A stretch of 64,000 nt of DNA from a virus (IMGVR_UViG_3300049049_000237:112003-176002), one strand, 5' to 3'; counted from the stretch's first letter, positions 6,753-62,222 are shown. A program made the numbers and translations. The notes: generated from the letters alone by a model not told the origin.

Positions 6753-6782
6753 AGTCTACTGCTCGCGCGACGAAGGGGTCAA
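6753..6782 (-). promoter_or_regulatory. Sigma70-like promoter for the RNAP gene, probably leaderless
   Basis: TTGACC-N18-TAGACT-N6-GTG(6746), with no Shine-Dalgarno (SD) sequence. Confidence 0.65.
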
Positions 6783-6812
6783 CGAACCGAGCCGAAACGC
6801 AGGGGTTACTGA

Positions 6813-6820
6813 CCTATCAG
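6813..6820 (+). promoter_or_regulatory. CCTATCAG motif upstream of a plus-strand operon
   Basis: Exact 8-mer repeated ahead of several operon-leading genes; followed here by GGAGG and ATG 6836. Confidence 0.5.
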
Positions 6821-6835
6821 AAACGTGGAGGCGCC

Positions 6836-6994
6836 ATGCCCGATCACGAGCACCAGGACGACCCCACGTACTTCGAGCGCATCGACACGCTCACGCAGTT
6901 CGACGACTTCGTCGCCGACGTCATCAACGCCAACATGTTCCCGCCCGCACACCAGGAGGAGTACGAAGACGATGCTGAATCTTCTGCTGGTTAG
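6836..6994 (+). CDS. Small acidic hypothetical protein (52 aa)
   Basis: GGAGG SD; MPDHEHQDDPTYFERIDT...AG*; codon style matches the genome. Confidence 0.6.
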   Translation: MPDHEHQDDPTYFERIDTLTQFDDFVADVINANMFPPAHQEEYEDDAESSAG

Positions 6995-13164: not shown

Positions 13165-13173
13165 GTGCGGATA

Positions 13174-14070
13174 CTACCCGATCTGCGCAGGGGCGGGACG
13201 TGATCCACCGAGAGCACGCCCGACCCGACCGCTGAGATACTCGACACCCTGACCCACGACGTTCTGCGAGAGCATCGGAAGTCCGCTGAATACGAGACCT
13301 CCGCCGATGTTGCCCACGGCACGCATCGACTTCTCGCCGAGCGATCGACCACCCGCCGCACTCTCGTCACCACGTGCGAGATCGGCCCCGCTGACTGCGA
13401 CAGGCACGCCGACGCCAGCGGCGACGCCGAGACCACCGCCGAGACGAAGCTGATCCCACACGGCCTTCGACGCAGCTCGCGGGTCCTTAGCGAAAGCCTT
13501 CACCGCTCCCGGCGCGTGGGTCATGCCGAGGTCACGCATGCGATCGCCGACATCACCTTCGGCGAAGTGAGCTCGCATGCTCGCTGCCTGCTCTGCACTG
13601 TTCACGCTGCCAGGGCTGTGCTTCGCGAGATCCTGTGCGCGCAGCGTGTCGAGATGAACTCGCTTCGCCGCAGTGCCGCTTCCCGTGATGCCGATGCGAT
13701 CGAGGTACGCTTTGTCGTTCGCTCCGTGCCCGGTGATCCCGTGCACCTGACGACGAGCGAAGTTGCCGACGCCCTCCCCTGCTCGCGCCAGCGTCGCCTT
13801 CGCGACGTCCTTCGCGCCCGAGAGCTGCGGGTTGAGCAGCATCGTGTCGCGCGCACCACGGCCGATCGCCGCGACGCCGGCACCGGCGAGGCCGCCGCGC
13901 AGCGCACCCAGCACGCCACCAGCGACGTAGTTCTTCTCGCCCTCTCCGCGAGCGGCCTCACGCGCTACGCCGAGCGCGCCGCCGAGCCCCGCCCCGATCG
14001 CAGAGGTGCTGCCCGGGTTGTGTGCGATGAACCGCCCTGCGCTGCTGAGGATGTTCGCGTGCTTGTTCAT
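13174..14070 (-). CDS. Gly/Ala-rich glycine-zipper protein, putative internal virion protein
   Basis: Repeated GxxxG helices; starts MNKHA; lies in the head module. Confidence 0.7.
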   Translation of the reverse strand: MNKHANILSSAGRFIAHNPGSTSAIGAGLGGALGVAREAARGEGEKNYVAGGVLGALRGGLAGAGVAAIGRGARDTMLLNPQLSGAKDVAKATLARAGEGVGNFARRQVHGITGHGANDKAYLDRIGITGSGTAAKRVHLDTLRAQDLAKHSPGSVNSAEQAASMRAHFAEGDVGDRMRDLGMTHAPGAVKAFAKDPRAASKAVWDQLRLGGGLGVAAGVGVPVAVSGADLARGDESAAGGRSLGEKSMRAVGNIGGGLVFSGLPMLSQNVVGQGVEYLSGRVGRALGGSRPAPAQIG

Positions 14071-16947: not shown

Positions 16948-16977
16948 AGGGTACGGCAGGCACGACAGAACGGTCAA
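16948..16977 (-). promoter_or_regulatory. Sigma70-like leaderless promoter of the head operon
   Basis: TTGACC-N18-TACCCT-N6-ATG, the same geometry and -35 as the RNAP promoter. Confidence 0.65.
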
Positions 16978-16981
16978 ACGA

Positions 16982-16989
16982 CCTATCAG
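16982..16989 (+). promoter_or_regulatory. CCTATCAG motif upstream of the replication operon
   Basis: Exact 8-mer; GGAGG SD and ATG 17016 follow. Confidence 0.5.
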
Positions 16990-17015: not shown

Positions 17016-17648
17016 ATGTCCCTCGAACCCGAGGTCGGGAACAATATCGGGCCGACCAACAAGAACATGAACTGCGACTCGTGGGGAACCTACGAATCGC
17101 CCAACTCCTCGCCCACCGCCTCCCTGTGCAACGGCGGTACGCTCGACGGCCATCTGTGGGCCGAGTGCCCTTCGCGCGAGGACTGCCGCAAGGAGCGTAA
17201 CCAGCGAGTGCTCGCAGATGCGCGAGCTCGCTCGGGACGCACGCATCTGCCCACGGTCTCGCCGGCATCGCAGGTACGCTTCGTCGGAGGGCAGACGCAG
17301 CGCCCGTTCTCTGGTACCACCTCTTCTCCCGCAGCAACGACCATCCCCCAGCGCCCGGTGGGGGTACCCGCCCAGATCCACAAGGCCGAATCCGGCAACC
17401 CCTACATCGACACGCCTCGCGTGCTCGCGCCTACGCGGCCGGGCATGCACTCGCCCACGTTCCTGCCGAACAAGAAGGAGCACTGGGCAACCCGCCTCTT
17501 CAAGAACATGGTCCAGGGCGCGTTCAACGCGTTCGGCTGGCACATCCACGACCTCACGCAGCACGTCGACCTCTTCCCCTATCAGGACGACGAGCAGCAC
17601 ATCCTGCCCCCTTCCACGCCTCCCGCGGAGGATAACGAGAAGAGATGA
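17016..17648 (+). CDS. Hypothetical protein with N-terminal Cys cluster and Pro-rich linker
   Basis: GGAGG SD; four Cys in the N-terminal 60 aa. Confidence 0.75.
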   Translation: MSLEPEVGNNIGPTNKNMNCDSWGTYESPNSSPTASLCNGGTLDGHLWAECPSREDCRKERNQRVLADARARSGRTHLPTVSPASQVRFVGGQTQRPFSGTTSSPAATTIPQRPVGVPAQIHKAESGNPYIDTPRVLAPTRPGMHSPTFLPNKKEHWATRLFKNMVQGAFNAFGWHIHDLTQHVDLFPYQDDEQHILPPSTPPAEDNEKR

Positions 17649-19036
17649 AGTTCGTACTTCGTGATCCCCAGACCGCGTACCTCGATACGTGGCTCTGGCT
17701 CCCGAAGATGTACTGGAGCGTCGGCCAGCTACAGGCGGCGCTCCGGTACGAGAACCCCAGGACGGGTGACCTGCTCGACGTCTTTCACGAGGCGGCCGAG
17801 CACTACAAGGTTCCCCGCAACTTCCTGTCCTGGGAGACTCTCGGGAAGCTGCCGTACCCCGTGGTCGACAGCCGGTTCACCGACTTCCCTCGCGTCGAGT
17901 TCACGAGCAAGGTCGTGCTCGACGCGAAGGAGCCGTCGAAGACCTACCAGCGAGATGGCTCACAAGCTCTTCTTTCGGTATGGGACGGCATCCTCACCCT
18001 GCGCTGCGGGGCAGGGAAGACAGTCGTTGGACTACACACGGCTGCGCAGAACAAGAACCCCATCCTCATCGTCGTGCAGGACAAGGGCCTCGCACGGCAG
18101 TGGATGGAAGAGATCGAAGAGTTCCTGGGCATCCCAGCCAAAGAGGTGGGACGCGTCGGCGGCGACAAGTCGCCGTTCGACTGGGAGAAGAAGATCTGCG
18201 TCGCGATCGTGAACACGCTCGCGATACGTGTGCAGGAAGGAACGCTGCCGCCGGAGATGACCCGGCACTTCGGCACCATCCTGCTGGACGAGGCGCACAC
18301 GATGGGCGCTCCGTTCTTCAACACGGCCATCCCGCCGTTCCACGGCAGGCGTTGGGGACTGAGCGCGACCCCGACGCGCGAGGACGGGTTCGACTCGCTC
18401 CTCCAGTACACGATGGGCGACGTCGTGTACGAGTATCTGATGCCGGACCTGAAGCCCACCGTCTTCTTTCGGTCCCTCCCGACGATCTTGAACACGACCG
18501 ACAAGCGGGTGAAGGAAGCGACCCACGACTCGACGGGCATGCTCCACTTCGGGAAGCTCTACGACTACTTCGCGTCGCTCGACCGCCGAGTCACCACGAT
18601 CGCGAACGACGTGAAGATCTCCCTGAACGACGGACGCCAGGTCCTCATCCTCACGCACAGCCGAGCGATGTGTGAAGCGCTGGCTGCGAAGCTGCCTGGG
18701 GCAGGCGTGGTGCACGGCGACGTGGGAGAGCTCGAACGGCTCAAGCGCATCAGGAACTGCAACCCCGTCATCGCGATCATGAGACTGGGCAAGCAGGCGC
18801 TGAACAAGCCCAGCCTCGACACGTTGTTCATCTGCGAGCCCTTCCGGAAGGAAGCGATGCTCCAGCAGTGCATCGGCCGCATCTTGCGCAACTACGGCGG
18901 CAAAAAGTCGCCGAGTGCGGTCTTCTACGAGGACACGCAGATCGAGCCGATGTTCAAGCTCTGCAACAAGATCCGACGAAGCCTCTACTACTGGCCCGCC
19001 AAGAAGGGCGGCCGGATCCCGTACTTCGACAAGTGA
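17645..19036 (+). CDS. Superfamily 2 DNA helicase (UvsW/XPB/ResIII-like)
   Basis: CGAGKT, DEAH, SATP and QCIGRILR motifs. Confidence 0.9.
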   Translation: MKFVLRDPQTAYLDTWLWLPKMYWSVGQLQAALRYENPRTGDLLDVFHEAAEHYKVPRNFLSWETLGKLPYPVVDSRFTDFPRVEFTSKVVLDAKEPSKTYQRDGSQALLSVWDGILTLRCGAGKTVVGLHTAAQNKNPILIVVQDKGLARQWMEEIEEFLGIPAKEVGRVGGDKSPFDWEKKICVAIVNTLAIRVQEGTLPPEMTRHFGTILLDEAHTMGAPFFNTAIPPFHGRRWGLSATPTREDGFDSLLQYTMGDVVYEYLMPDLKPTVFFRSLPTILNTTDKRVKEATHDSTGMLHFGKLYDYFASLDRRVTTIANDVKISLNDGRQVLILTHSRAMCEALAAKLPGAGVVHGDVGELERLKRIRNCNPVIAIMRLGKQALNKPSLDTLFICEPFRKEAMLQQCIGRILRNYGGKKSPSAVFYEDTQIEPMFKLCNKIRRSLYYWPAKKGGRIPYFDK

Positions 19037-19047
19037 GAGACAGGAAC

Positions 19048-19572
19048 ATGGACATCATCAACAAGAGCAGCGTGCAGGACACCCTTCCTTCGATCGAGAT
19101 GTGGACCGGGCTGGAGCGACCGCGCCTCAGGCTCTCCGACTCGGATGCCGTGTTGCGTGTGCACATCAACCCGGCAGACCGCGAGTACCGCTGGCTTGAT
19201 CACGTCGTCCTGCTGCCCTGGTTCGCGCCGCAGCGCGTTCTCGGCTTCGTCCACCCGAGGATGATGGAGAAGGTGGGCCAGGAGCCGTTCATGCTGCACG
19301 CCGCATGCATGTACAACGCGAACCACGCGCTCCAGCCGGTGAACGGCAACCAGATGCGCGTCGTGGAGGGGCCGAAGATCACGCTGCCCTACGACCTCAT
19401 CGATCCGATGAACATCCGCATCTACCGCTGCCCGTCGGCCATCTTCCTCGCCGACCAGTCGCCGCGGACGCGTGAGGTGTTCGCGGCGATGCTCATCCAG
19501 GTCCTCGCCCCGACGCAGATCGAGCTCGCGGACCCCGGGAAGGTGCCGCCCCAGCGGGGTCAGCGCGGATGA
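19048..19572 (+). CDS. Hypothetical protein (174 aa)
   Basis: AGGA SD; ATGA coupling to the next gene. Confidence 0.7.
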   Translation: MDIINKSSVQDTLPSIEMWTGLERPRLRLSDSDAVLRVHINPADREYRWLDHVVLLPWFAPQRVLGFVHPRMMEKVGQEPFMLHAACMYNANHALQPVNGNQMRVVEGPKITLPYDLIDPMNIRIYRCPSAIFLADQSPRTREVFAAMLIQVLAPTQIELADPGKVPPQRGQRG

Positions 19573-20306
19573 CCGACGAGGCGCGCTCGAAGAGAAACCT
19601 GACCGTGCTCTCCGAGCAGTGGCACGGATGCACGCGCTGCGAGCTGTCGAAGACCCGAGAAGGTCCCGACATCTTCTTCGGGTTCGGAGAAGCGCAGCCT
19701 CGCGTACTCGTCATCGGCTCGACGCCCACCGCTGCGGACGAGTATGGGAACGCGATGTTCGCGGGGGATGAGGGGGATCTTCTTCTGCACCTGTTGAGAG
19801 AAGAAGCCAACATCCCGACCGAGGACTGCTTCTTCACGTACGCCGTCTCGTGCCGCCCGAAGGTGTTCATCCCCGCGACGGAGGATGAGCCCGAGCGCAT
19901 CGAGAACAGGCCGCCCTCGAAGGAGGAGCTCGTGGCGTGTCGCCCGCGCCTGTACGAGATCCTCTACCAGACCGACCCTCGCGCGATCGTCACCGTCGGC
20001 GAGGTCGCAACGAAGGCGGTCGTGCGGGGACGACTGCCGAAGTTCGTCGAGGCCGTCGACAAGCAGTACCAGTGCGTGCTGTTCCCCGCGACGAAGGAAG
20101 ACCACGAGGACAACAAGGTGACGGGCAAGGCCCGCTACCAGCCGCTCGTCTATCCGGTCTTCCCGATCCCCGACATGAACACGATCATCAACAATCCGAG
20201 CACCGCTGAACATGGTCCTTACCGCCTCGCGGTGAAGATCCTCAAGAAGGTGCAGGACTACACGAAGTTCGTAATCGAAAACGAAGAGCACACGATGAGG
20301 GGCTGA
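19569..20306 (+). CDS. Family-4 uracil-DNA-glycosylase-like Fe-S protein, degenerate active site
   Basis: CTRCEL, SCRP and NRPP...C cluster ligands; motif A is GSTPT and there is no motif-B HP. Confidence 0.8.
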   Translation: MTDEARSKRNLTVLSEQWHGCTRCELSKTREGPDIFFGFGEAQPRVLVIGSTPTAADEYGNAMFAGDEGDLLLHLLREEANIPTEDCFFTYAVSCRPKVFIPATEDEPERIENRPPSKEELVACRPRLYEILYQTDPRAIVTVGEVATKAVVRGRLPKFVEAVDKQYQCVLFPATKEDHEDNKVTGKARYQPLVYPVFPIPDMNTIINNPSTAEHGPYRLAVKILKKVQDYTKFVIENEEHTMRG

Positions 20307-20737
20307 TGTCCAAGCAGACCGCATTCGCAGCGAAGACCGCATACGAGCAGGCCCTGGCCCAGTACGAGGCGTTCCGCGCGGAGCACGCCGACGTCTTCGA
20401 GGAGCACGACCATCTCGCCGTCGCCCTCCAGGAGGCGTTCGACGCGATGAAGAACGAGTACAAGGAGAACCACAAGATCCTGGGTCGCCAGTTCGCCGGC
20501 ATGAAGCTCTCCGTCCCGCGCGAGCTCAAGGTCGACGTTCTCATCGAGGAGCTGGGCGAGGACGAGGTCGAGAAGTTCAGCTTCGTCAAGAAGAAGCTGA
20601 GCATCGACGCGAAGGAGTGGGACAAGGCCGTCTCGGCTGGCGTGATCGATCGCTCGCTCGCCGAGAAGGTCGAAGGCGAAGGTTCTCCCCGCATCACCGG
20701 TGGTCCGCGCTCGCTGCCGACCATCTACCAGCCGTAG
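20306..20737 (+). CDS. Hypothetical protein (143 aa)
   Basis: TGATG coupling; helical and charged. Confidence 0.75.
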   Translation: MSKQTAFAAKTAYEQALAQYEAFRAEHADVFEEHDHLAVALQEAFDAMKNEYKENHKILGRQFAGMKLSVPRELKVDVLIEELGEDEVEKFSFVKKKLSIDAKEWDKAVSAGVIDRSLAEKVEGEGSPRITGGPRSLPTIYQP

Positions 20738-21096
20738 TGATCACGGAGATCGTTCAGTGGGTCGAGGCATGGGACGCCGATGGCGAGCCCATCCTCGACC
20801 TCTGTTACCAGTCCTACCTCACAGAGGAACAGCTCTACATGGCTGACGTGTTCAAGTCGCTCTCGGGCGACGGCAAGGCGAAGATCAGACGCGAGCTCAC
20901 CGAGACGCTCGGCGGCCCGCGCTACAGCTCGATCAAGGTGACGACCAGCATCGAGCTCACTTGCGACCAGTCGCAGCCGGTCATCCGGCGCGCAGCGAAG
21001 GAAGCGATGGCCGAGGTGCAGATCCTCAACGAGGAAGCCCTCACGGTCTCGTGGGAGAAGCTCCGCGAGCACATCAAGGACACGGACTGGACCTGA
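20737..21096 (+). CDS. Hypothetical protein (start uncertain: GTG 20737 or ATG 20839)
   Basis: Fills the operon gap; TGATG-coupled to the next gene. Confidence 0.65.
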   Translation: MITEIVQWVEAWDADGEPILDLCYQSYLTEEQLYMADVFKSLSGDGKAKIRRELTETLGGPRYSSIKVTTSIELTCDQSQPVIRRAAKEAMAEVQILNEEALTVSWEKLREHIKDTDWT

Positions 21097-21422
21097 TGCA
21101 CAGCGGATTCAAAGGAACGCGTCTCGCGCTGACTTCCATGTCGGTGCGAGAGAACATCATCAACTACGAGATCTCGTACATCGATAGCGACGGCGTGTCC
21201 CACGGGACGATGAAGCACGCGCACTCGATCGTCGAAGGTTCGGACGTACACAAGAAGATGGACGAGCTCGCAGGACTTCTGCTGGGACAAGCCGCGAAGA
21301 TGCACTTCGAGAGCCCCGCTGGAGAGACCGTGCGTGCACCCGCAGGAGGCATTCGTGGAATCGCAGAAGCTCTGGGCTATTCCGGAGTCCCGTCTGATGA
21401 GCCTGACGGAACTCCAGGATAG
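21096..21422 (+). CDS. Hypothetical protein (108 aa)
   Basis: ATG overlaps the upstream TGA. Confidence 0.65.
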   Translation: MHSGFKGTRLALTSMSVRENIINYEISYIDSDGVSHGTMKHAHSIVEGSDVHKKMDELAGLLLGQAAKMHFESPAGETVRAPAGGIRGIAEALGYSGVPSDEPDGTPG

Positions 21423-22449
21423 CGTCGTCATCGACGCAGATCATCATCACCCCGACATCATCTTCGACCCGACCGGACAGCATCACAACATGTTCTTCCG
21501 CGTCCTCCCGATGAAAGAGATCATCGACGAGAACGAGGAGAACATGGTCGGGCTGGTCATCGACTCCAACATCGACGACCACGTGCTGTACGAGACCCGC
21601 GCCCACATGTTCACGCGGTGGAGCCGGCACCAGCTCCTCGCCTTCTTCGGCGCCCGCGAGAAGTGGTTCAGCTTCGTGGACCTGGAGCGCCAGGCAGACG
21701 AGCTCAACGCACGCGTGGGATCACTCGCAGGACACTGCATCCGCACGATGCGTCCCTTCGACGAGGACTTCCCGATCCACATCGTCCGCGGCATCGTGAG
21801 CGCCGAGTACGTGGACATCCCGAACGTCGCTATCATGGAAGCGATGGTTGCACGCATGCCCAGTGACGCATGCGCGCTTCGCTACCACAGCGGCATCACC
21901 GATCGGGCGTTCTACGCCTACGTGTTCAGCCCCGACATCATCGCGATCCCAGGCACGAAGTTCATCGCGCATCCCGGCGCGCTCGTGCGCAACAGCGAGG
22001 TCGGGCACACCTCGCTCAGCATCACGCCGTGCTTGGTCACGCCGACCGGGCAGCCCATCGTCGCGAAGGAGCACGTGATGCTTCGTCGTGTTCACCGTGG
22101 GCGTGACCTCGACCTCATGGGTCTGTTCGAGGGCACCTTCGACAAGTGCGCGACCCTCTGGAAGGGGATGAGCAGCAAGATCATGATGCTCTCCTCGAAG
22201 ACGTATCCGGACACTGACAACGCGGTCGCGACGATGCAGCGGCTGCTGATCCGTGCAGAGGCGAGGAAGGACTTCATCGCCCTCTGTACCCAGAAGTACA
22301 GGAACACCCGCAGCGGCCAGACGAGGCACACCGCCCTCGACATCTTCGAGGTCGTGACCGAGGTCTGCGCCACGTTCACCGATCGCGACGAGAGCTACGA
22401 GCTCGGTGCCATCGCTGGTGCCGTGCTCTTCCGACTCGTTCTCACCTGA
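21397..22449 (+). CDS. DUF932-like protein
   Basis: RGIVSAEY...N and NSEVGHTSL motifs, recalled as typical of this phage/MGE family. Confidence 0.55.
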   Translation: MSLTELQDSVVIDADHHHPDIIFDPTGQHHNMFFRVLPMKEIIDENEENMVGLVIDSNIDDHVLYETRAHMFTRWSRHQLLAFFGAREKWFSFVDLERQADELNARVGSLAGHCIRTMRPFDEDFPIHIVRGIVSAEYVDIPNVAIMEAMVARMPSDACALRYHSGITDRAFYAYVFSPDIIAIPGTKFIAHPGALVRNSEVGHTSLSITPCLVTPTGQPIVAKEHVMLRRVHRGRDLDLMGLFEGTFDKCATLWKGMSSKIMMLSSKTYPDTDNAVATMQRLLIRAEARKDFIALCTQKYRNTRSGQTRHTALDIFEVVTEVCATFTDRDESYELGAIAGAVLFRLVLT

Positions 22450-22562
22450 CGCTGCCCGTACGCACGGTCACCACGCGAACCACACAACCGATTGTGGTCC
22501 GCGGGACGTGCTTGCGGGCGCGCGTTTCCTTCTCCAGTATCGCCCTCCCCCGGAGGTTCGAG

Positions 22563-24197: not shown

Positions 24198-24199
24198 AC

Positions 24200-25234: not shown

Positions 25235-25245
25235 GGAAAGACGAG

Positions 25246-26532: not shown

Positions 26533-26538
26533 GCCGAG

Positions 26539-28542: not shown

Positions 28543-28552
28543 AAGGAAAGAC

Positions 28553-29881: not shown

Positions 29882-30063
29882 TGGACCCCGATGCCTGCCT
29901 GAAGGAAGCGATCGAGGCGCTGCTCAACGACGACGCGGAGACGTTCAACGAGCGCCTCCAGAACTACGACGAGTGGCGCAGCAAGCAGGGCTTCGAGCCC
30001 AGACTTCAGATCAGCGGCGACGTGCTGCGAAAGGTCCTGGACAGCGCCGGACGCTCGTTCTGA
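29881..30063 (+). CDS. Small hypothetical protein (60 aa)
   Basis: TGATG-coupled; begins MDPDACL. Confidence 0.65.
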   Translation: MDPDACLKEAIEALLNDDAETFNERLQNYDEWRSKQGFEPRLQISGDVLRKVLDSAGRSF

Positions 30064-30069
30064 GGACGC

Positions 30070-32549: not shown

Positions 32550-32809
32550 TGTCCACGAGCAAGAGTACGGAGATCATCGATCTCGCGGCGGAGCAGGTGG
32601 AGCCGAAGTACGCGGCCTGCTACGCGAGTGGATCGACGTTCAAGCCTACGGGCAAGGGCGCCACGACGTTCGTCGTCGAACGTGGGAAGCGCCGTCTGGT
32701 GAGTCGTTCGTTGTGCGTCGTGCAGTACTACAAGACTCGCTGCCAGGTCTGCCCGTTCAGCCAAGGGGAGCTCAAGCTCTCCACGGGAGGCAGCGACGAT
32801 GACGCGTAG
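32549..32809 (+). CDS. Small Cys-containing hypothetical protein
   Basis: TGATG coupling; C...C...CQVC. Confidence 0.65.
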   Translation: MSTSKSTEIIDLAAEQVEPKYAACYASGSTFKPTGKGATTFVVERGKRRLVSRSLCVVQYYKTRCQVCPFSQGELKLSTGGSDDDA

Positions 32810-33742: not shown

Positions 33743-33765
33743 GCACGTCGGAACCGCAGGTCGAT

Positions 33766-33960: not shown

Positions 33961-33967
33961 CGGGAAG

Positions 33968-42459: not shown

Positions 42460-42482
42460 GAGCCGGTGGTAGGATAGCCCCG

Positions 42483-45700: not shown

Positions 45701-46791
45701 TCCGTGTCCGAGATGACCTCGGTCACCTGCACGTCCTTGAAGACCGGAGGCGAGCCGTACACGAGCGTGACGTAGTAGCCGTCGGGCTCCGACCCCGCCG
45801 AACCGATGCGGCTCACGAAGTGGCCGTCGGTCGCGCTGATGCGGCGCGTGGTCGTGTTGCCGTCCCCGTCGTCGATCGCGGTGCCCGAGCCGTACGCGGA
45901 CCCGAAGGAGTCGTCCGGGCGGATCTCGCCCAGGCTCCCGCCCTTCACGATGTCGCGCTCCATCTCGGGATCCTTCATCCCGATGACCTGGATGCTTCGG
46001 ATCGCGGGGAAGTTGTTCTTGAGCTCCGAGAGGATACCGCGCTGCACGGTGAGCGTGCGATCGCTCAGCGTGGTCTCGACGCGGCCCACGAAGTCGATGC
46101 TGGTCTCTCGCGGCAGGCCGCCCTGGAAGCGGTTGACGTTCCGGATGCGCGCGGCCGACGGGAGGTTCGCGATCGAGGTGATCTCGTTGCGGTCGATGTT
46201 GTACTCGTCGCCTCGCTTCTCAGCGCGGTACGTGATGTCGACGTAGTACTCGTTGCCGTCCCGGTTGAGCGCCATCTGGCTCGACGTGATCGTCTGCGTC
46301 GGGCTCGGCACGAAGCGAAGTCCGCTCCGCGTGGTGGCCACCTGGATGAGCGAGAAGGTCACCGTCTGGGGCGCGAGGAACCAGATGCGGATCGTTCCGC
46401 GCGAGTACCCACCTGCCTGGCGGGACTCGAAGAAGTTCCCCATCAGCGAGTCGATCTCGTCGTCCGACAAGCTCTCGACGTTCGCCACGCCGCCCTGGCG
46501 CAGCTTCGCGAGCTTGATCTCTCGGACGAGAGGCTCCATCAGCACCTGCATCGGGCTGATGAGGGTGTCTTCGAGGGCCTGGGTGTCTTCGATCGCCAGG
46601 TCCGGGAACATCTGTGCGACGCGCGACTGCACGAAGGTCGCGATGTCCGTGTCGAAGGGGTCGATGCCGATACGCGTGATGATCGGCTCGATGATCTCGA
46701 CTTGCGCGCGGCCGCCCTCCGACAAGTCGATGTCGGGCTGGAACCGAAGCAGCAGGTCCTGGAGGAAGGTACGAAGGTCGCTCTGGGCCAT
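42787..46791 (-). CDS. Baseplate J-like protein (1334 aa)
   Basis: R..G..SRGTI, AEKRGDEYNI....I and N...F.GG...E gpJ-like segments. Confidence 0.75.
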   Translation of the reverse strand: MAQSDLRTFLQDLLLRFQPDIDLSEGGRAQVEIIEPIITRIGIDPFDTDIATFVQSRVAQMFPDLAIEDTQALEDTLISPMQVLMEPLVREIKLAKLRQGGVANVESLSDDEIDSLMGNFFESRQAGGYSRGTIRIWFLAPQTVTFSLIQVATTRSGLRFVPSPTQTITSSQMALNRDGNEYYVDITYRAEKRGDEYNIDRNEITSIANLPSAARIRNVNRFQGGLPRETSIDFVGRVETTLSDRTLTVQRGILSELKNNFPAIRSIQVIGMKDPEMERDIVKGGSLGEIRPDDSFGSAYGSGTAIDDGDGNTTTRRISATDGHFVSRIGSAGSEPDGYYVTLVYGSPPVFKDVQVTEVISDTDILVDIELPSFPLSVSWALRKKELTISDIPGGITLPDTPDGELVITSDEVHIGGKTDVYLAGETSEETVAIEGLSDEEPLAMGFDAETVASPGVDADWIVINDPTGGAAALLASIEGQNYSIVLSEGVDIGSYAIRDARVDGTTVEVRVPVEMTGTQGGISWKIVNEISVELTEPKDIKVDGEDMVLVAGNNSVTTLSSTNFIDANVQQNDTLRLEGDFVGGDYNIDAVGPVQLTISPTPERTVSNVRYTIFRAGEAVQTPVVRVKELQLLDSGGAPNGVVIPYRDPVVVMTRGFQNEGSGLTYEGFPDRIGLVTGALGATVAFGAGQTLIFNFRNATRPYAGQTATHTLNLVGSLTPAQIVSAINADVTLAGRSVFASLISYNGQSFVGIYCPEWVQMDLAGTANVSLGFNTADRPSTNIEIVISAHNPREGDLIEFVDGNNRGTTRVLFRNSGTATSFLVGSGPVSDFTTPLYAVTPLLPEVGVRIRIGRPSVGSARVYFLDPTSAEFHYDATRLTTLVGTDLLEYRPDPENQRIVQPAPPLTELPKGGETSTGSVNNVFGDTEVNFQALGVRDGDILEVLYRPITSTAALSSPGTIAGIIGQTLILRLAENPWITVSFSVALTRDDIAEFINEQVGEEIATIDGSGYLVLEGDVQITIRDDSTILGGSDPLLLAGAPRSTAHPRAGRYIITDVEPNTLTLSPDTVFASTTAVADTAYRIVRHVQRISSTEMNDNQDGTGLYYVDVELLSLAPGDRNNAPANLSMEITGHVSDGYRLYTDNDTLSYSRAERLFAEISRTILLVGSSDSPEEYVQLSQQNVQVSYDRSQLVDDVQSFCDSDDHRVVVEEILARHLLPHYVNITWRYAGGETEVSMRTALTTYLDAIGSDEELEIVDMTKVMTSRGATSIYNIDSESPTGRSAPILVIIYHTIDRQMRALLVRDYAKTSRTQRFIADDLAIVRIAPGGIRA

Positions 46792-47771: not shown

Positions 47772-47791
47772 GCGCGAAGGCTACCACGCCC

Positions 47792-51558: not shown

Positions 51559-51575
51559 GGGCTGAAGGCTACCAC

Positions 51576-51878: not shown

Positions 51879-53384
51879 TCACGCCACCTGAGCCAGGCGG
51901 GCTGCGTGTCGAGCAACGAGCTCCACGAGGCCCGCCTTCTTCGTTTGCCCCTGCGCGTGCTGACGAAGCAGATCGCGAACCTGGCTGTTCAGCGTGTCCT
52001 TGTCCTTCGACATCTGGGTCAGGTACTCGTCGATCGCGCCCGGCCTCTTCGCGCCGAAGAACTTCTTGATGCGGTTGGGCTCCGGGTGCACCGACTGGTA
52101 GTGCTCGACGGCGACGCGGCGCTGGTCCTCGGGGAGATGCTCGTGGCTCTTGTAGCGGATGCCGCGAGCGATCACCTGCTCCAGCTTCTCCTTGTTCCAG
52201 TGCGGTTCGAGCACCTGGATCTGCCGGGTCCCCTTGAGGTCGAGGCCCTCGCCGCCGGCCGACGACAGGAGCAGCGCCTTGAGCTTGCCCTCGTTGTAGT
52301 CGGCGACCATGCGATCGCGCTCGCTCTTCGGCATCTCGCCGGTGAACTTCCCGTACGCGACGTTGTGCTGCTTCAGGAGCGACTCGTACGGATGAATACC
52401 AGCGTCCAGGAAGTTCGAGTAGACGAGCGCGCGATGTTGCGGATTCGACTCCAAGTTCGTCGAGAGGCGCTTGTATGCCTCCTGGATCTTCGGGCTGAGC
52501 GCAACAGCATCATCAGGCGTCATCCCTTCCTGGAAGCCGCCAGGGCTGTTCGAGATCTGACGAACCGCGCTCGCGAACGCGTTCAGGTCCTTCGACTCCT
52601 GCTTGTTCGGCGGAAGCCCCTTGCGGACCTTGTACCGCACCCACGCGGGAGCCTTGCCCATCACCGACTCGTACATCTCGCGCTGCTTCGGGTGCATCGC
52701 GACCTGGACGGTCTGATCTTCGCGCTGCGGGAAGCCCTCGGTGCTGTTCTCGTGGAAGTCCACCCAGCGACCGAGATGCTTGCCGAGCTCCTCCTGGTTC
52801 TGGAGCTCGGTGACCGCTCCGGGCTTCACGCCGCGGAACGTGCGTGCGAACCAGCCTGGGTCGACCTTGCGCTCCCGGATGTACTTCTTGTCGAACTCCT
52901 GCTGAACCGCCGGGAACACGTTCTGCCCCGAGGCGAGGTTCACGAGCGACGCGAGGTCGTACGGCCGGTTGTACGTCGGCGTGCCCGTCAGCAGCATCCG
53001 CTTCTTCGTGTCCGCCAGCCGGATCGCCTTCCGGCCCTCGGACTGCGGATCGCGAAGACGATGCGCCTCGTCGACGGTGAGTAGGTCCGACTGCGGGACC
53101 TTCTGCTTCAGCGCCACACGCTGGAGGCTGTCGATCTTGTACGAAGCCTCCGGCGTCCCTTCGATGTGCTTGCCCAGCTCCTTCTTGAAGTTCGACTGGA
53201 GCGCCGCCGGCACCACGACCGTGTTCTTCGCCTTCTGGTCTTCCGCGGTTGCGATCGCGGTGAGCGTCTTGCCCGAGCCCATGCCGTGCGCGACCACGAG
53301 GCCGGGCTGCGTGCGCATGCGCTCGACCACCCGCTGCTGATGCGGCTTGAGGTCGGTGATGATGTCGGCGAGCTTGCGCATCAC
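51879..53384 (-). CDS. SNF2-family helicase/ATPase
   Basis: HGMGSGKT, DEAH, LTGTP, GEGLDL, WN and Q..ARGIR motifs. Confidence 0.9.
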   Translation of the reverse strand: MMRKLADIITDLKPHQQRVVERMRTQPGLVVAHGMGSGKTLTAIATAEDQKAKNTVVVPAALQSNFKKELGKHIEGTPEASYKIDSLQRVALKQKVPQSDLLTVDEAHRLRDPQSEGRKAIRLADTKKRMLLTGTPTYNRPYDLASLVNLASGQNVFPAVQQEFDKKYIRERKVDPGWFARTFRGVKPGAVTELQNQEELGKHLGRWVDFHENSTEGFPQREDQTVQVAMHPKQREMYESVMGKAPAWVRYKVRKGLPPNKQESKDLNAFASAVRQISNSPGGFQEGMTPDDAVALSPKIQEAYKRLSTNLESNPQHRALVYSNFLDAGIHPYESLLKQHNVAYGKFTGEMPKSERDRMVADYNEGKLKALLLSSAGGEGLDLKGTRQIQVLEPHWNKEKLEQVIARGIRYKSHEHLPEDQRRVAVEHYQSVHPEPNRIKKFFGAKRPGAIDEYLTQMSKDKDTLNSQVRDLLRQHAQGQTKKAGLVELVARHAARLAQVA

Positions 53385-56766: not shown

Positions 56767-56785
56767 GGCCGAAGTATACACTGAG

Positions 56786-56815
56786 GGGCAAAAGAGAAGG
56801 CCCGGAGGCCTTCTC
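56786..56815 (-). terminator. Intrinsic terminator after the sigma gene
   Basis: GAGAAGGCC-TCCG-GGCCTTCTC then TTTTGCCC. Confidence 0.85.
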
Positions 56816-56817: not shown

Positions 56818-57612
56818 TCACGGCAGGTACGGCTTCGCCTTCTTGAAGATGGCCGAGCGAAGCTGGTAGACGCGGCTCTTGTTCATGCCGGTGCGCTTCG
56901 CGATTTCAGCCATCGAGGCGGGAGAGCCGTTCGAGGGGAAGAGCTGATCGAAGACCTTCTTCTCCTCGGACGTGAGCAGCGACGGCATCAGCGAGATGAT
57001 GCTGCGCATCTGGCTCGGGGCGTGCCCCAGGCTCCCGTCATCGGCCGCCTCGGGGTTCGGGTTGCCGCCGATGTAGTGCTCAGTCCGGACCTCGACCATC
57101 AGGCGCTGGATGTCGTTCGGCTTCACGTCCGGAAGCCGCTGCGAGATCTCGTGGGCTGAGGGCTCACGCCCGAGCTCGTCGTGGAGCTCGTTCTTCGCGT
57201 TCTGGACGCGCTGGTAGAGGTCGACGCGGTTCTTCGGGATGCGGGCGAAGTTGCGGTTCGCGGCCACGAAGTCGGTGACGCGCTGAAGCCCCGTGGTCAC
57301 CCACGTCTGGAGCTTGGCGCCGCCGCTGTCCGGGTTGAAGCTCTCGATGCTCTTCTTCGCTGCGAGTCGGAGCTGGGTCTCCATCGCGCCGTACGGGATC
57401 GACCCGCCGACGCCTCTGGTGCGCGTGCGCGCCTGCTTCTGGATGACGTGCTCGAACGCATCGAGCAGCGGTACGAGGTCGCGCTCCTGGCGACCTCCCG
57501 CATGCCACTTGCGCCAGAGCTCCTCGTGCGGGTCGGCAGACTTCGGCTTCGAGCCGAGCTCCTGACGAGCCGTTCTGTTGAACTCGGTGATCTTCTTGTT
57601 GGTGCTCATCAC
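56818..57612 (-). CDS. Sigma70-family RNA polymerase sigma factor (group 3, FliA/SigB-like architecture)
   Basis: Region 2 SIESFNPDSGGAKLQTWV, RIP, region 3 LGREPSAHEI, region 4 HTH MAEIAKRTGMNKSRVYQL. Confidence 0.85.
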   Translation of the reverse strand: MMSTNKKITEFNRTARQELGSKPKSADPHEELWRKWHAGGRQERDLVPLLDAFEHVIQKQARTRTRGVGGSIPYGAMETQLRLAAKKSIESFNPDSGGAKLQTWVTTGLQRVTDFVAANRNFARIPKNRVDLYQRVQNAKNELHDELGREPSAHEISQRLPDVKPNDIQRLMVEVRTEHYIGGNPNPEAADDGSLGHAPSQMRSIISLMPSLLTSEEKKVFDQLFPSNGSPASMAEIAKRTGMNKSRVYQLRSAIFKKAKPYLP

Positions 57613-57914
57613 TTCGTCGCGGCGTTGTGCCGACCGACGGCCTGAGCTGCCGCAGACGCGCCGGAAATCTCCGACACCTTGTCGTGAAGGAGACGTCCGA
57701 TCGTGCCGCGGAGATCGGCCACCGACGGCTGGAAGTTGGTGAATGCGCGACGGAGCTCTCCCTGCCGGGTCTCCTCGGCACGTTCGCGCGTGAGCGGCGT
57801 GAACGGCTCCGGATGGTTCTGCACCGACGGGCTCTCGCCCGGCGGCTGGATGCTGTTCGTTCCCGACACGACGCTCTCGTTGAGAGCGAGCTCCATCGCC
57901 AGCTTGCTGATCAT
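57609..57914 (-). CDS. Hypothetical protein (101 aa) upstream of sigma
   Basis: AAGGA SD; begins MISKLAMEL; stop overlaps the sigma start. Confidence 0.6.
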   Translation of the reverse strand: MISKLAMELALNESVVSGTNSIQPPGESPSVQNHPEPFTPLTRERAEETRQGELRRAFTNFQPSVADLRGTIGRLLHDKVSEISGASAAAQAVGRHNAATK

Positions 57915-57928: not shown

Positions 57929-57936
57929 CTGATAGG
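57929..57936 (-). promoter_or_regulatory. CCTATCAG motif upstream of the sigma operon
   Basis: Exact 8-mer in the 26-nt intergenic gap, 14 nt before ATG 57914. Confidence 0.5.
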
Positions 57937-58627: not shown

Positions 58628-58636
58628 GTTGGAAGC

Positions 58637-61600
58637 CTATCCGAGGATGCCGCGTGTAGCCAAGATGGCGTGGACGTAGCGAAGCACCGCGAGGCGCTTC
58701 TCCTTCCGCGTGTCCATCCGTTGAGCGCGCTGGGCATCTCGTGCAGCGCGCTGTTGGGATGCCGGATCGGAAGCGTCTTCTTCATCCATCGTCGTGAGGC
58801 CGAGGATCGTCTGCGGACGCCTCTCTCCATCGACGCTTCGGATGAGCTGACGCAGATCGTCGAAGTCGCCGAACGCACGGCTGTGGAAGCCCTCCACTCC
58901 GCGCACGACCTCGCCGTTGTCGTCGATCTCCAAGTTGGCGGTGCCGAACATGTCGACCATCGACGCGATGCGCCTCCACGTGTACGAGCGCAGGAAGTCG
59001 TCGACGTCGAAGCGGTTGCGCTTGATCGCCGAGTACGAGTCGACGAGAGACGTGACGGCCTCCTCGATCGAGCCACGTCCGGGGATCTCTCCGACGCGTG
59101 TCGAGTCGCCGGGCTCGCCGGGAGCTCCCACGACTTCCGGTCGCTGACTGTCGAGGAACTCCGGCTCGGTCTCGGGCCTCGTCACGTGCGGCTGCGTGGT
59201 GTCCCCCGTCGACGCCGTCGAACGGAGAATCCCATCAACTTCTTCTTGCGTCAGCGTCGCCGAGCGACCGGTGGGATCCACGATGATGGTGGGATCCACG
59301 ATCGAGCCCGTGCCGAAGAAGTACCCGTAGAGGGCACCGATGTTCTGGCTCCGGTAGTGCTCGCCGTACCAGGGCGGGAACGTGAGGTCCTCGGCCGGCA
59401 GATCCACCGACTCGCGTCGGTAGACACCGAGACGCTCGGTGATGCGGTACGCGCGGAAGGTCACCTCGACCTCCGTGAGCGTCGCCTCATCACCGGCGTT
59501 CCCGGTGCCCTGGGCGCTCACGAACGACGACTGCGTGCCCCCAACGCTCCCGACGAGCGCTGCGACTTCAGGAACGGAGGATGCCGGTACGGGGGTGCCC
59601 ACGATGACGCGGGTGCCCCGCGTGCGGCCCGTTCGGGGACCGGGGATGAAGAGGGGAAGCCGCGACCGCGAGACGTAGCGCTGCTGGCCCGTCGCAGATG
59701 TCGAGCGGCGTCCACGCACCGGCCGTGCTCGCTGATCGCGCTGGTACTCGTCCGTGACGTCTTCGATCCGGAGAATCTCCCCACCACGCGGACCTACCGT
59801 CCCTTCCCCCGGGGGCTCGATCATCGCGACGACAGTCCTCGTCTCGATGTTCCGAGTGCGCCGGTAGCGACGCACCTGGTATCGATCATCACCCAGGAAC
59901 TCGGTGCGCTCGTCGGTGACGCGCGCGTACGCCATCTGCACCTGCGTCGTGCCGCCCGTCTCGGCGGAGATGCTGTGCGTGATCGCTGCGGGGGTGCCGA
60001 GGTAGTGGCTGTTGGGCTGCTGCTCCGTCAGCTCGCGGACGAGCTCGTCGACGCGAGTCTCTTCGAGCTCAAGCTGCCGCTGACGCTCTTCCTCGGGGAG
60101 GTTCGAGCCGACGCCGGTGCCTTCGCCCTCGCGGCTCTGCTGCGCGATGCGGCGTGCGATCTCCAGGTCGACTTCGACATCGGAGGAGTTGATGAGGTCG
60201 CGCGACTTGTACTTGTCGACGACGAGAGCAGGGAACCCGAGGACACAGAACGGGTTGAACTTGCCGGCCAGCACGAGCTGCCTGCTGCGGAAGCGGTACT
60301 GGAAGAAGATGTGGTTCGCCGCGAGCTGCGCATACCCGACGCGCACGCCGTCGATCATGATCGAACCGCCACGCAACGCGTGCAGGTTCAAGTCGCTCAT
60401 GCGCTCGAACTTCGGGATGATCCCGGTGAAGAGCTCGTGGTCCATCATGTCGCGGACGAACCACGCCGGGGCATCAGCGAGATCGGGCGGCTCCACACCG
60501 ACACGGCCACGGCCGATGTCCGCTCCCGTGCGCACGCCGAGGACCTTGTTCGGGGCCATGTAGTAGCCGTCGAACAAGAAGTCGGAGCCGAAGAACGCGG
60601 AGTGGGTGCGCAGCATGAGCCGCGAGACCTCCTCCATGTACTGCCGGCTGTACGAGAAGTTCGAGTAGAGCTCGGGGAAGAAGACGTTGCAGCGCGGCGG
60701 CGCGACCATCCAGACGTCCGGCCGGTAGATCTGCTGGAGCAGGCGAGGCGGAGGGTCGGGCTGCTGCGTGTTGCTGCGCACGCGACGACGCACCTCGGCG
60801 TTGCAGACCTCCTCCATGTCCGCCGCGATCTGCTCGCAGAGCAACGTGAGCTCCTGCGCCTCGGGCGTCCCGGGCGGGAAGAACGTGTTGCTCCGGACGT
60901 CCATGCGCTGAGCTCGGCGCGTGGAGTTGTCCTTCATGCGGTCGAAGCGCTCCTGCGCGACGACGAACTTCTGGTGGATCTGGAGGTTGCTCACGAACGT
61001 GGTGCGCTCACGCACCGCGAGACGACGAGACAGGCCTCCTGCGCGGCCGCACGTGCGCGACAGACGATCGAGCTCGTTCGCGAGGCCGCCGTTGCGCTGC
61101 GAAAGACGACGAGCATCTTCGGGCGTCGTCGAGTCCGCCTGCCGCTGCTTCAGGTCGAGGGCCCGCTGCTTCACGAGGCGTGCTGCGCGGATGACCTCCG
61201 TGTAGCTCGACTCGCTGGTGATGGGTGCCGTCTCGAACTGCGGCCTGTTCGGGTCGACCAGCGCCGGGATGAAGTGCGGCGAGGTGACGGGAATCACCTC
61301 GTGGAAGATGTAGCGCTGGAGCGCGTTGAGGACGTCGCGGATCGAGACCTGCCGACCCAGGCCCGACAGCGCGCGGCGGAAGAGACTCCCGAAGCCGTTC
61401 GCGTGGAGCAGACGCACTTCGTTCTGCTGCTCGAACGGGTTCGCCCCAACCATCTGCGTGATCTTCAGCCGGAGCTCGGCGAGGCTGAAGAAGTCGTTCA
61501 CGCCGCGGATCGCACGCTGCCCGTACGTCACACCGCCGATCGCTTCGATGAGGTGCACGACCGCGCCGAGCAGCGTGCCCCGCAGGTTCGGGTAGCTGCG

Positions 61601-62188
61601 GGGTGCCGTGTTCATCAGGCCCGTGACGATGTCCGCGTTTCCCTCCAAGAAGGAGTTGAACACGTTGGTCGCAGCGCCCGTGAAGGCTGCCCGGATGCCA
61701 CCGCCCCCAAGCTCGAACCCGTTCACCTGGTACTGGAACGCGTAGTCCCAGTACATCGAGAAGTCCATGCACTGGAGCACGATGCTTCGCGACGTCGGCG
61801 TCTTGTCCATGCCGAAGCCCACGAGCTCGCCTGCGAAGAGCAGACGGTAGTTCTCGTTCTCCAGGTCAGCCGCTTCTTGAGCGTCCGTGACCTCCAGCCT
61901 CTCAGGTGGGATGATCCCGTCGAGCTCTGGATCGCGCTCGCGGGTATCGATCGCCATGTTCTCGCCCGCGACCCACGCGCGCTCCGTCGGCGGAGCACCT
62001 CGATAGAAGTCGTAGAAGAACAGGTGGATCAGCGTACGCGGCTTGAGTTGAAGCGCGTAGTCGTTCGCCGGGATCTGGATCGATGCGACAGCGGGCTGGT
62101 TGGGTTGCGACTGCACCACAGCCGAGATCACAGGGATCTCGATGCCCTCTGCGAAGCAACGAAGATGCAGTCTCTGTGCGATCGTCAC
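58637..62188 (-). CDS. Large tail / baseplate hub-like protein (1183 aa)
   Basis: Hub-like N-terminus (A.IQIP...LLFAGEL...LQCMD) and G.FNP....G.P segment; lies in the tail module. Confidence 0.6.
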   Translation of the reverse strand: MTIAQRLHLRCFAEGIEIPVISAVVQSQPNQPAVASIQIPANDYALQLKPRTLIHLFFYDFYRGAPPTERAWVAGENMAIDTRERDPELDGIIPPERLEVTDAQEAADLENENYRLLFAGELVGFGMDKTPTSRSIVLQCMDFSMYWDYAFQYQVNGFELGGGGIRAAFTGAATNVFNSFLEGNADIVTGLMNTAPRSYPNLRGTLLGAVVHLIEAIGGVTYGQRAIRGVNDFFSLAELRLKITQMVGANPFEQQNEVRLLHANGFGSLFRRALSGLGRQVSIRDVLNALQRYIFHEVIPVTSPHFIPALVDPNRPQFETAPITSESSYTEVIRAARLVKQRALDLKQRQADSTTPEDARRLSQRNGGLANELDRLSRTCGRAGGLSRRLAVRERTTFVSNLQIHQKFVVAQERFDRMKDNSTRRAQRMDVRSNTFFPPGTPEAQELTLLCEQIAADMEEVCNAEVRRRVRSNTQQPDPPPRLLQQIYRPDVWMVAPPRCNVFFPELYSNFSYSRQYMEEVSRLMLRTHSAFFGSDFLFDGYYMAPNKVLGVRTGADIGRGRVGVEPPDLADAPAWFVRDMMDHELFTGIIPKFERMSDLNLHALRGGSIMIDGVRVGYAQLAANHIFFQYRFRSRQLVLAGKFNPFCVLGFPALVVDKYKSRDLINSSDVEVDLEIARRIAQQSREGEGTGVGSNLPEEERQRQLELEETRVDELVRELTEQQPNSHYLGTPAAITHSISAETGGTTQVQMAYARVTDERTEFLGDDRYQVRRYRRTRNIETRTVVAMIEPPGEGTVGPRGGEILRIEDVTDEYQRDQRARPVRGRRSTSATGQQRYVSRSRLPLFIPGPRTGRTRGTRVIVGTPVPASSVPEVAALVGSVGGTQSSFVSAQGTGNAGDEATLTEVEVTFRAYRITERLGVYRRESVDLPAEDLTFPPWYGEHYRSQNIGALYGYFFGTGSIVDPTIIVDPTGRSATLTQEEVDGILRSTASTGDTTQPHVTRPETEPEFLDSQRPEVVGAPGEPGDSTRVGEIPGRGSIEEAVTSLVDSYSAIKRNRFDVDDFLRSYTWRRIASMVDMFGTANLEIDDNGEVVRGVEGFHSRAFGDFDDLRQLIRSVDGERRPQTILGLTTMDEEDASDPASQQRAARDAQRAQRMDTRKEKRLAVLRYVHAILATRGILG

Positions 62189-62222
62189 GCCAGGAGCCTA
62201 CGTGAATACCGTGGAAAAAGCA

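Follow-up and report, generated by a model that had tools for sequence, protein, structure and literature searches.

Introduction

How a phage that encodes its own RNA polymerase (RNAP) divides its genes between promoters of a bacterial type and promoters of its own, and how the resulting mRNAs are translated, is the question raised by bases 112,003–176,002 of the virus record IMGVR_UViG_3300049049_000237 (191,681 bp, 64% GC). This stretch of 64,000 nucleotides, here called the window, carries a fused RNAP, one sigma factor, a plus-strand replication block, and many large proteins without a family match. A reading of the window made from its sequence alone had drawn attention to a hexamer of the form TANNNT, which stands 6–7 nt before a set of ATG and GTG start codons that lack a Shine–Dalgarno (SD) sequence. 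This sequence-only reading proposed that transcription starts on the start codon itself, and that the structural programme begins on leaderless mRNAs while most replication genes use SD sequences or stop–start coupling.

The TANNNT class very probably consists of sigma-70-type promoters that give leaderless first cistrons. The hexamer recurs at a fixed distance from start codons throughout the genome, is kept in related phages while its middle letters and flanks change, and stands at the heads of units that encode virion-associated proteins. The signal is already known from Actinobacteria, from Deinococcus–Thermus and from phages of Thermus, and in that respect the advance is modest; what is new is its use at the heads of virion units in a phage that also encodes a multisubunit-type RNAP and possesses another class of promoter.

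The phage under study is referred to as G0. The comparison drew on the full records of three IMG/VR relatives (G1, 195.8 kb; G2, 49 kb; G3, 35 kb), whose RNAPs are 67–82% identical to that of G0; a more distant relative, G4 (74 kb), is about 55–62% identical, and approximately 12 metagenome RNAP loci were compared in addition. A megablast search of 10 kb against cultured phages gave no match, and the closest cultured phages, Vibrio D69/D148/D181 and Salmonella phage Arash, reach a protein identity of only 26–31%. Sites are named by the position of the start codon, and positions in the genome are given as such or with the prefix g.

Enrichment of the hexamer at start codons

Start codons were taken as the first ATG or GTG of each stop-to-stop open reading frame (ORF) with a coding-type signature of GC content at the three codon positions (GC1/GC2/GC3), across the whole 191.7-kb genome and without consulting the motif (n = 187). 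TANNNT lies 6–7 nt before 16 of these 187 starts, compared with 45 of the 12,055 ATG/GTG codons on both strands (odds ratio 38, Fisher P 2.6e-18). The spacing is narrow: 12 ORFs have the hexamer at 6 nt, 4 at 7 nt and 2 at 5 nt, and the remaining spacings from 0 to 30 nt have a mean of 0.52 and a maximum of 2. Enrichment over internal ATG/GTG codons, on which the sequence-only reading had staked its proposal, is borne out, as only 6 of 2,411 internal in-frame codons carry the motif at 6–7 nt. The shuffled control it had suggested on 40-nt upstream regions gives the same answer, with dinucleotide-preserving shuffles yielding 1.4 ± 1.2 occurrences (maximum 6 in 1,000) against the 16 observed.

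An excess of this kind might come from chance, or from start codons picked to fit the motif. The starts at 16941, 56766 and 42459 had been reassigned by the sequence-only reading, and at a spacing of 6 nt a TAG or TAA at −12 is an in-frame stop, after which the next RTG inevitably becomes the “first” start of its ORF. Such a bias would act equally at other in-frame distances, and the artefact is excluded because it does not: TAR stops at −12 number 11, against 0–7 at other distances, and 8 of these 11 also have T at −7, where 18% would be expected. The spike was found from the first ATG/GTG without use of the motif, is replicated in four other genomes, and survives the shuffle, spacing and internal-RTG controls, while alignment of orthologs from residue 1 confirms the starts at the N terminus. 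On these controls and alignments the explanation by chance or start choice was rejected, and we consider it exceedingly improbable.

Some individual matches were set aside. The sequence TACGGT-6-GTG at 39010 was taken as chance, lying inside coding sequence with a 4-nt gene overlap and not being conserved in G1, and the sites at g188456, g80397 and g102317 find no support in G1. A search for full −35 plus −10 combinations found 7 where 5.3 were expected, which is no overall enrichment; 4 of the 7 lie 6–7 nt before called starts, and a fifth (g187581) lies before an uncalled ATG at a spacing of 7. GTG begins 5 of 14 genes in the leaderless set and 16 of 82 SD-led genes, with no clear difference between the two.

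All ten hexamers that the sequence-only reading listed in the window were found by direct check, with the positions and spacings it had assigned. T at −12, A at −11 and T at −7 are present in nine of the ten, the exception being TACCAC at 42459; the spacing is 6 nt at seven sites and 7 nt at two, and at most sites a G stands directly 5′ of the hexamer. An extended −10 TGn occurs at exactly three sites (47771, 51558 and 42483) and TTGACC with an 18-nt spacer at exactly two, as had been reported. The lack of SD sequences was likewise upheld, with an SD core length of 0 at 6746, 13164, 16941, 47771, 51558, 56766, 58627 and 62188; the AGGA inside the TAGGAT of 42483 provides the sole SD-like letters among the sites.

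Conservation in related phages

The same spike is seen in the related genomes, with 8 ORFs at 6 nt and 3 at 7 nt in G1, 4 at 6 nt in G2, 4 at 6 nt in G3, and 3 at 6 nt and 1 at 7 nt in G4, over a background of 0–3 at other spacings. Under strict anchoring to G1, a TANNNT at 5–8 nt is kept by 9 of 13 leaderless candidates and by 0 of 38 other genes (P 2e-7). In the distant G4, 6 of 7 testable sites are conserved, and counting either the spike or conserved sites the pattern is shared by five relatives. Sites 6746 and 16941 are kept in G1–G4, 13164 in G1–G3, 47771 and 51558 in G1 and G4, and 56766 and 58627 in G1.

Upstream of the RNAP gene, TTGACC-18-TANNNT is kept in 16 of 17 distinct relatives whose RNAPs are 53–82% identical, at 6 nt from the start in 15 of them and at 5 nt in one. 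The hexamer reads TAGACT, TAAGCT, TAAACT, TACACT or TACAAT, and the columns of the 18-nt spacer and the 6-nt discriminator vary; in alignment this is the classical phylogenetic footprint of a putative bipartite promoter. At 16941 the −35 and the −10 are both kept in G1 (spacing 7), G2, G3 and G4 (spacing 7). Beyond the flanks of the RNAP gene, conservation at distance is carried by G4 and by the site g111392, which lies just left of the window (at −610 in window coordinates) and has no −35. Here TGnTANNNT-7-ATG is present in G0, G1 and G2, TAGGCT at 6 nt in G3, and the pattern recurs in all 8 further loci recovered, two of them G1- and G2-like records. Its hexamer drifts through TAGGAT, TAGTAT, TACGAT and TACCAT, so that T, A and T are retained and the likeness to an SD is gone.

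The remaining sites show similar drift around fixed positions. At 47771, G1 has TGaTAGATT-6-ATG and G4 has TGaTAGAGT-6-GTG in flanks that have otherwise diverged, and at 51558 the two genomes have TAGCCT-6-ATG and TAGGCT-6-ATG, respectively. The auxiliary elements typical of sigma-70 promoters are conserved too, TTGACC-18 at 6746 and 16941 and TGn at 47771, 51558, 42483 and g111392. Site 56766 follows a terminator hairpin (56794–56815; −19 kcal/mol, z −2.6, with a U-tract after it) that closes the sigma operon, and with so strong a terminator just upstream a new promoter is needed there. The G1 counterpart is TAGACT-6-GTG, and because its TAG is an in-frame stop the start of the ortholog is fixed.

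At the portal gene (13164) the hexamer is TAGGAT in G1, TAGTAT in G2 and TATGGT, which is not a stop, in G3. The portal ortholog of G4 (at about 19432, minus strand) has no TANNNT and instead has a GAGG SD 4 nt before its ATG. Judged from these upstream sequences, the leaderless start in G0 and the SD-led start in G4 appear to be the outcome of a naturally occurring exchange at orthologous genes.

The divergent genes at 42483 (plus) and 42459 (minus), whose start codons are 23 nt apart, required a correction. The TACCAC (42466–42471) that the sequence-only reading had offered as a weak −10 at 6 nt before ATG 42459 is present, although it is not conserved, and it is probably wrong as the −10 of this gene. 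A TANNNT is found further upstream, at 11 nt in G0 (TATCCT), 10 nt in G1 (TAGGCT) and 11 nt in G4 (TAGAGT), and the 42459 gene probably has a 4–5-nt leader, to judge from this spacing. In symmetric bidirectional −10 promoters a TANNNTA sequence is read on both strands and the divergent transcription start sites (TSSs) are about 18 bp apart. The TAGGATA at 42470–42476 can be read on both strands in the same manner, as can the TACTCTA/TAGAGTA of G4 (spacing 7 on one strand and 11 on the other); in this phage the likeness is limited to the 42459/42483 pair and comes from sequence. G1 has an insertion of about 570 nt between the two orthologs and no TANNNT before the 42483 ortholog, so that the 42483 site is kept in G4 and not in G1.

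A subclass of the form TTGACC-16/18-TATGCT-7-RTG was observed outside the window, at genome positions 11477, 75973 and about 187544. A second TATGCT stands in tandem 5–6 nt upstream at g11477 and at about g187544 (tatgctctccgTATGCT), and g11477 is conserved in G1.

Probable leaderless transcription and its alternatives

In Deinococcus radiodurans, TANNNT located 6–7 bp before ORFs is the RpoD-read −10 element of leaderless genes; the spacing matters, and a −35 at 17 bp boosts activity (PMC12340547). Zheng et al. had found that this signal, approximately 12 nt upstream when counted from its first T, marks leaderless genes in Actinobacteria and Deinococcus–Thermus (PMC3160421). Taken with the geometry described above, this work leads us to read the class as leaderless promoters of the sigma-70 type. 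The hexamers would be −10 elements of the sigma-70 family, some accompanied by a TTGACC −35 at 18 nt and some by an extended −10 TGn. The seventh base after the hexamer, the usual start point, would be the A or G of ATG or GTG, a preferred purine, so that transcripts would begin at the start codon or within 1–2 bases of it. The first cistron would then be translated leaderless, without an SD, and the downstream cistrons from ordinary SDs. The location of +1 on the start codon, as proposed by the sequence-only reading, is thus consistent with the fixed spacing, with the variable middle letters and flanks, and with conservation in orthologs.

Several observations count against this account in its simplest form. 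The spacing has exceptions, being 9 in G1 at 62188, 8 in G1 at 67836 and 10–11 at 42459 in three genomes, besides the portal gene of G4 with its SD. At 62188 the G1 ortholog retains a −10, TAGGAT, which at 9 nt before the ATG would imply a leader of 2–3 nt. The assignment of +1 to the start codon is itself derived from geometry. In addition, a generic scan with the E. coli consensus for sigma-70 promoters and for terminators found 0 promoters and terminators at chance level, and missed the hairpin at 56794–56815; the absence of promoters in that scan is expected, because the hexamers here are GC-rich.

The same hexamers might alternatively be a translational signal on longer read-through mRNAs, acting either by stop–restart coupling (TAG, 9 nt, RTG) or as a degenerate SD provided by the AGG of TAGGNT. 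The sequence-only reading had cautioned that at 13164 and 58627 the TAG of the hexamer doubles as the stop codon of the upstream gene, which is indeed so; the stop lies exactly 9 nt before the start at these two sites and at 67836, and the AGGA of TAGGAT is at a workable SD distance. The sites 6746, 16941, 51558, 56766 and 62188, however, are at the heads of units with divergent genes or a terminator upstream, where there is no cistron to couple to. Neither the conserved −35 at 18 nt (two sites) nor TGn (several sites) has a translational role, and T at −7 is kept while the middle drifts to forms without SD likeness (TAGCCT, TACCAT, TATACT) and, in the portal of G3, to the non-stop TATGGT. A purely translational signal is accordingly a very improbable explanation, and transcription from sigma-70-type promoters is the reading followed below.

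Genes headed by the class

PHROGs and Pfam searches with the proteins headed by leaderless sites were nearly all blank, and functions were assigned from local tblastn matches to Arash, a phage with a measured virion proteome (PMC10585845). The gene at 13164 encodes the portal (Arash gp204, E 1e-62). The gene at 6746 encodes the RNAP (519–6746, minus strand), a single-chain beta–beta′ protein of 2,075 aa whose Arash homolog is gp206; the RNAP is the most abundant protein of Arash virions (PMC10585845). The product of 62188 is a giant virion protein with a weak syntenic match to Arash gp8 (E 4e-5), and the homolog of the sigma factor gp10 lies syntenically behind it. Two further matches are the Arash structural protein gp13 (42787–46791) and helicase gp217 (51879–53381), the latter detected in Arash virions (PMC10585845). 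The class heads most of the virion-associated transcription units, including those of the presumably packaged single-chain RNAP, the portal, the gp8-like protein and the tail modules. The coordinates of the individual elements are collected in Table 1.

Table 1. Putative promoter elements in the window, in order of position within each class
Feature	Position	Strand	Details
RNAP-gene promoter	6753..6782	−	−35 TTGACC 6777–6782, 18-nt spacer, −10 TAGACT 6753–6758, 6 nt, GTG 6746
Portal-gene −10 TAGTAT	13171..13176	−	6 nt, ATG 13164; TAG is the stop of the upstream gene
Promoter of 435-aa gene	16948..16977	−	−35 TTGACC 16972–16977, 18 nt, −10 TACCCT 16948–16953, 6 nt, ATG 16941
Symmetric TAGGATA	42470..42476	both	plus −10 TAGGAT 42470–42475, 7 nt to ATG 42483; minus TATCCT 42476–42471, 11 nt to ATG 42459
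Extended −10 TGgTAGCCT	47778..47786	−	hexamer 47778–47783, 6 nt, ATG 47771; 107-aa gene heading a tail/baseplate-like unit
Extended −10 TGgTAGCCT	51566..51574	−	hexamer 51566–51571, 7 nt, ATG 51558; 303-aa gene
−10 TATACT	56773..56778	−	6 nt, GTG 56766, 75-aa gene; directly after terminator hairpin
−10 TAGGCT	58634..58639	−	6 nt, GTG 58627, 228-aa gene; TAG is the stop of the 1183-aa gene; G1 keeps TAGGCT-6-GTG
−10 TAGGCT	62195..62200	−	6 nt, GTG 62188, 1183-aa gp8-like virion protein
CCTATCAG copies	6813..6820, 16982–16989, 17578–17585, 62223–62230	+	promoter-like motif heading SD-led plus-strand units
CCTATCAG copy	57929–57936	−	before sigma operon

Every minus-strand unit head in the window (62188, 56766, 51558, 42459, 16941 and 6746) has a TANNNT at 6–7 nt, or at 11 nt, and 58627, 47771 and 13164 are internal re-start promoters within virion units. 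An SD-like core is found in about 187 of 247 genes, among them the major capsid gene, the neighbours of the portal in its operon and, leaving aside the sheath and terminase starts, which were not individually checked, most other virion genes. The head of the main head–tail operon (g102263/102317) is ambiguous and probably leadered. The partition of promoter classes suggested by the sequence-only reading stands at the level of unit heads, where TANNNT is found on the RNAP, portal, gp8-like and tail units, and CCTATCAG followed by SDs on the replication block. It does not extend to a whole “structural programme”, as only the first cistron of a unit is leaderless and the major capsid and most virion genes have SDs.

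A contrasting motif on non-virion genes

The plus-strand block at 17016–34915 carries genes for helicases (an SF2 helicase and DnaB), primase, PolA, RecA and a nuclease, and these genes have SD sequences. Together with the sigma operon it is headed by the motif CCTATCAG, of which the genome has 13 copies where about 4 are expected; most copies are followed, 14–81 nt downstream, by a start that has a GGAGG-type SD. CCTATCAG stands back to back with a TANNNT promoter in four divergent intergenic regions, and at 16972–16989 it is 4 nt from the −35. In the relatives these positions are occupied by CCTATCAG or CCTATAAG.

In the Arash genome (OQ632216), upstream of virion and RNAP genes, the motif CTTATACC(T/C)TAAAATAC was observed about 20–30 nt before gp185 (109282) and gp216 (139441), with a partial TAAAATAC before gp218 (142729). 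It is a candidate promoter specific to that phage, with a first half similar to CCTATAAG in reverse complement.

Two observations concern neighbouring genes. A 101-aa ORF (57609–57914) precedes the sigma gene with a 4-nt GTGA overlap. Elsewhere in the genome (61271–63554, minus strand) a RecD2-type helicase is represented by two overlapping ORFs of 350 aa (OB_YrrC, HHH_RecD2) and 442 aa (AAA_30, SH3_13, UvrD_C_2), to be explained by a split in the gene or else by a wrongly called start.

The polymerase and the host

The TANNNT class is probably read by the housekeeping sigma-A holoenzyme of the host. The other, unrelated class, CCTATCAG, on replication and other non-virion genes, would then fall to the phage RNAP and its one sigma, giving a division of labour like that of coliphage N4. 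The phage sigma gene (56818–57612, minus strand; 264 aa) is the only one detectable in the genome. Its product has a region 3 and a weak region 4, and Pfam finds no region 2. In a phmmer alignment to SigA/RpoD structures, which is of low identity and counts as weak evidence, the segment that reads the −10 is GAKLQTWVTTGL-QRVTD in the phage sigma and GYKFSTYATWWIRQAITR in sigma-70; in the same low-identity alignment the equivalents of W433/W434 and F427 are T/G and L.

Instead of the host enzyme, the single-chain RNAP of the phage could read TANNNT itself, using either the phage sigma or a borrowed host sigma-A, with CCTATCAG as a regulatory site or as the promoter of a modified enzyme. Three points speak for this arrangement and weigh against a host enzyme. 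The phage sigma is closest to group-1 SigA, HrdB and RpoD over regions 2–4, and its region 3, the part that reads the extended −10 TGn, is clear; jumbo phages with multisubunit RNAPs, such as AR9 and phiKZ, usually transcribe their own late genes; and in Arash a common motif that is not host-like stands before the virion genes gp185 and gp216. Set against these are the single sigma gene, which would have to serve two unrelated and equally conserved motif classes, and the loss from the phage sigma of key residues for −10 recognition in sigma-70. Moreover, TTGACC-17/18-TANNNT is the universal housekeeping consensus, the class is absent from the enterobacterial Arash as expected if it depends on the host, and N4 demonstrates that a virion RNAP and host-read late genes can work together (PMC4496689). 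Transcription of the class by the phage RNAP is in our judgement rather unlikely, and the host sigma-A holoenzyme remains the preferred reader.

In Arash the counts at 6–7 nt are 1 and 3 of 355 ORFs, which is no spike, and the leaders of the portal and RNAP genes contain SDs, from which it follows that the feature tracks the biology of the host. As leaderless starts include both GUG and AUG (5 of 14 are GTG) and some promoters consist of a −10 only, the host would be a high-GC bacterium that translates leaderless AUG and GUG mRNAs well, for which Actinomycetota and Deinococcota are the obvious candidates. A search of genome contigs with an RNAP profile gave no match. The phage ThyX (genome 67804–69132) matched only a full-length 442-aa ThyX fusion, 52% identical, on CAYUVV010000001.1 (257,657 bp), which is labelled as a Candidatus Saccharibacteria metagenome-assembled genome; a contig of that size with such a gene could be a large phage that was binned wrongly, and not a host.

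Comparison with known systems

The class described here shares with the “−10 adjacent to ORF” genes of Deinococcus–Thermus and Actinobacteria a TANNNT with an uninformative middle in high-GC DNA, a distance of 6–7 nt to ATG or GTG, and the lack of an SD (PMC12340547; PMC3160421; PMC4007540). In both, a −35 at 17–18 nt is optional; in the bacteria it strengthens the promoter and the motif is the −10 of the housekeeping sigma, as is probably the case here. It differs in being found in a phage genome, in approximately 8% of genes compared with 20–60% in those bacteria, in its concentration at the heads of virion units, in the presence of a second, phage-specific promoter class, and in being known from sequence.

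Among phages, phiYS40 of Thermus produces mostly leaderless middle and late mRNAs by means of the host RNAP, with IF2 up and IF3 down, and a shift in translation was proposed for it, according to the account of Sevostyanova 2007 given in PMC3594737. The Lalka phages likewise have mostly leaderless transcripts, with a late −10 of TAGGGT and no −35 (Lalka27a, bioRxiv 10.64898/2026.04.20.719267). As would be the case here, transcripts of phiYS40 and Lalka27a begin at the initiator A or G, and TAGGGT is close to the TAGGCT and TAGCCT of the window. For the Thermus phages, by contrast, the TSSs have been mapped and the host is known. No sequence relation to them could be detected, and the phage studied here adds a multisubunit-type RNAP, a sigma factor and two promoter classes.

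The closest cultured phages, Arash and Vibrio D69/D148/D181, have in common with it a homologous RNAP (28–31% identity), portal, terminase, capsid, sigma gp10 and helicase gp217, with the sigma gene behind a gp8-like giant protein. In contrast, the RNAP of Arash is split into two genes and a second sigma is present. Arash gp206 and gp10 were found in virions by mass spectrometry (PMC10585845), and by homology to them the RNAP and sigma of the present phage may be packaged in the virion. If they are packaged as in Arash, the layout matches that of N4, in which the virion RNAP (vRNAP) reads early genes, whereas the late virion genes, which run in the opposite polarity to early and middle genes and include the gene for vRNAP, are left to the host sigma-70 RNAP (PMC4496689). 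The likeness consists of a virion RNAP, predicted for the present phage, together with host-type promoters on virion genes and phage-specific promoters on non-virion genes, the head of the main head–tail operon being ambiguous in this respect. The N4 vRNAP, however, is a single-subunit, T7-like enzyme, and transcription from its late promoters requires N4SSB and yields mRNAs with leaders; packaging in the present case is extrapolated from the Arash proteomics.

Conclusions

The sequence-only reading had raised the possibility of a translational switch between leaderless and SD-led genes, an idea for which the shift proposed in phiYS40 offers a precedent. No factor favouring leaderless initiation turned up in the approximately 60 proteins scanned, in the course of which no systematic search was aimed at such factors, and a switch is not needed in hosts where TANNNT-leaderless genes are native. 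Since only first cistrons are leaderless, it would act on roughly a dozen proteins. A broader programme with two polymerases and two modes of translation can be imagined, in which the virion RNAP and sigma would produce SD-led replication mRNAs from CCTATCAG and the host sigma-A would produce leaderless first virion genes from TANNNT. The polymerases would compete at the back-to-back or overlapping promoters 6746/6813, 16941/16982 and 62188/62223, thereby timing the switch from early to late expression, with leaderless initiation adding a translational layer. As a complete scheme this is unlikely, and we offer it as speculation.

The analysis provides a sequence-only promoter map, with conservation, for uncultured phages of approximately 160–195 kb that carry a fused beta–beta′ RNAP. 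The map fixes the start codons of about 12 large virion genes, among them the RNAP and portal genes and two that encode proteins of about 1,200 aa, and it confines the likely host to high-GC bacteria with good translation of leaderless mRNAs, whether these begin with AUG or GUG. A natural set of orthologous promoters that have switched between leaderless and SD-led initiation is identified as well, comprising the portal in G4 and 62188 and 67836 in G1. We see this lineage as dividing its genes between two classes, one leaderless and of host type, the other SD-led and specific to the phage. Were the programme of two polymerases and two translation modes to hold, the synthesis of virion proteins could continue when SD-dependent initiation is impaired.

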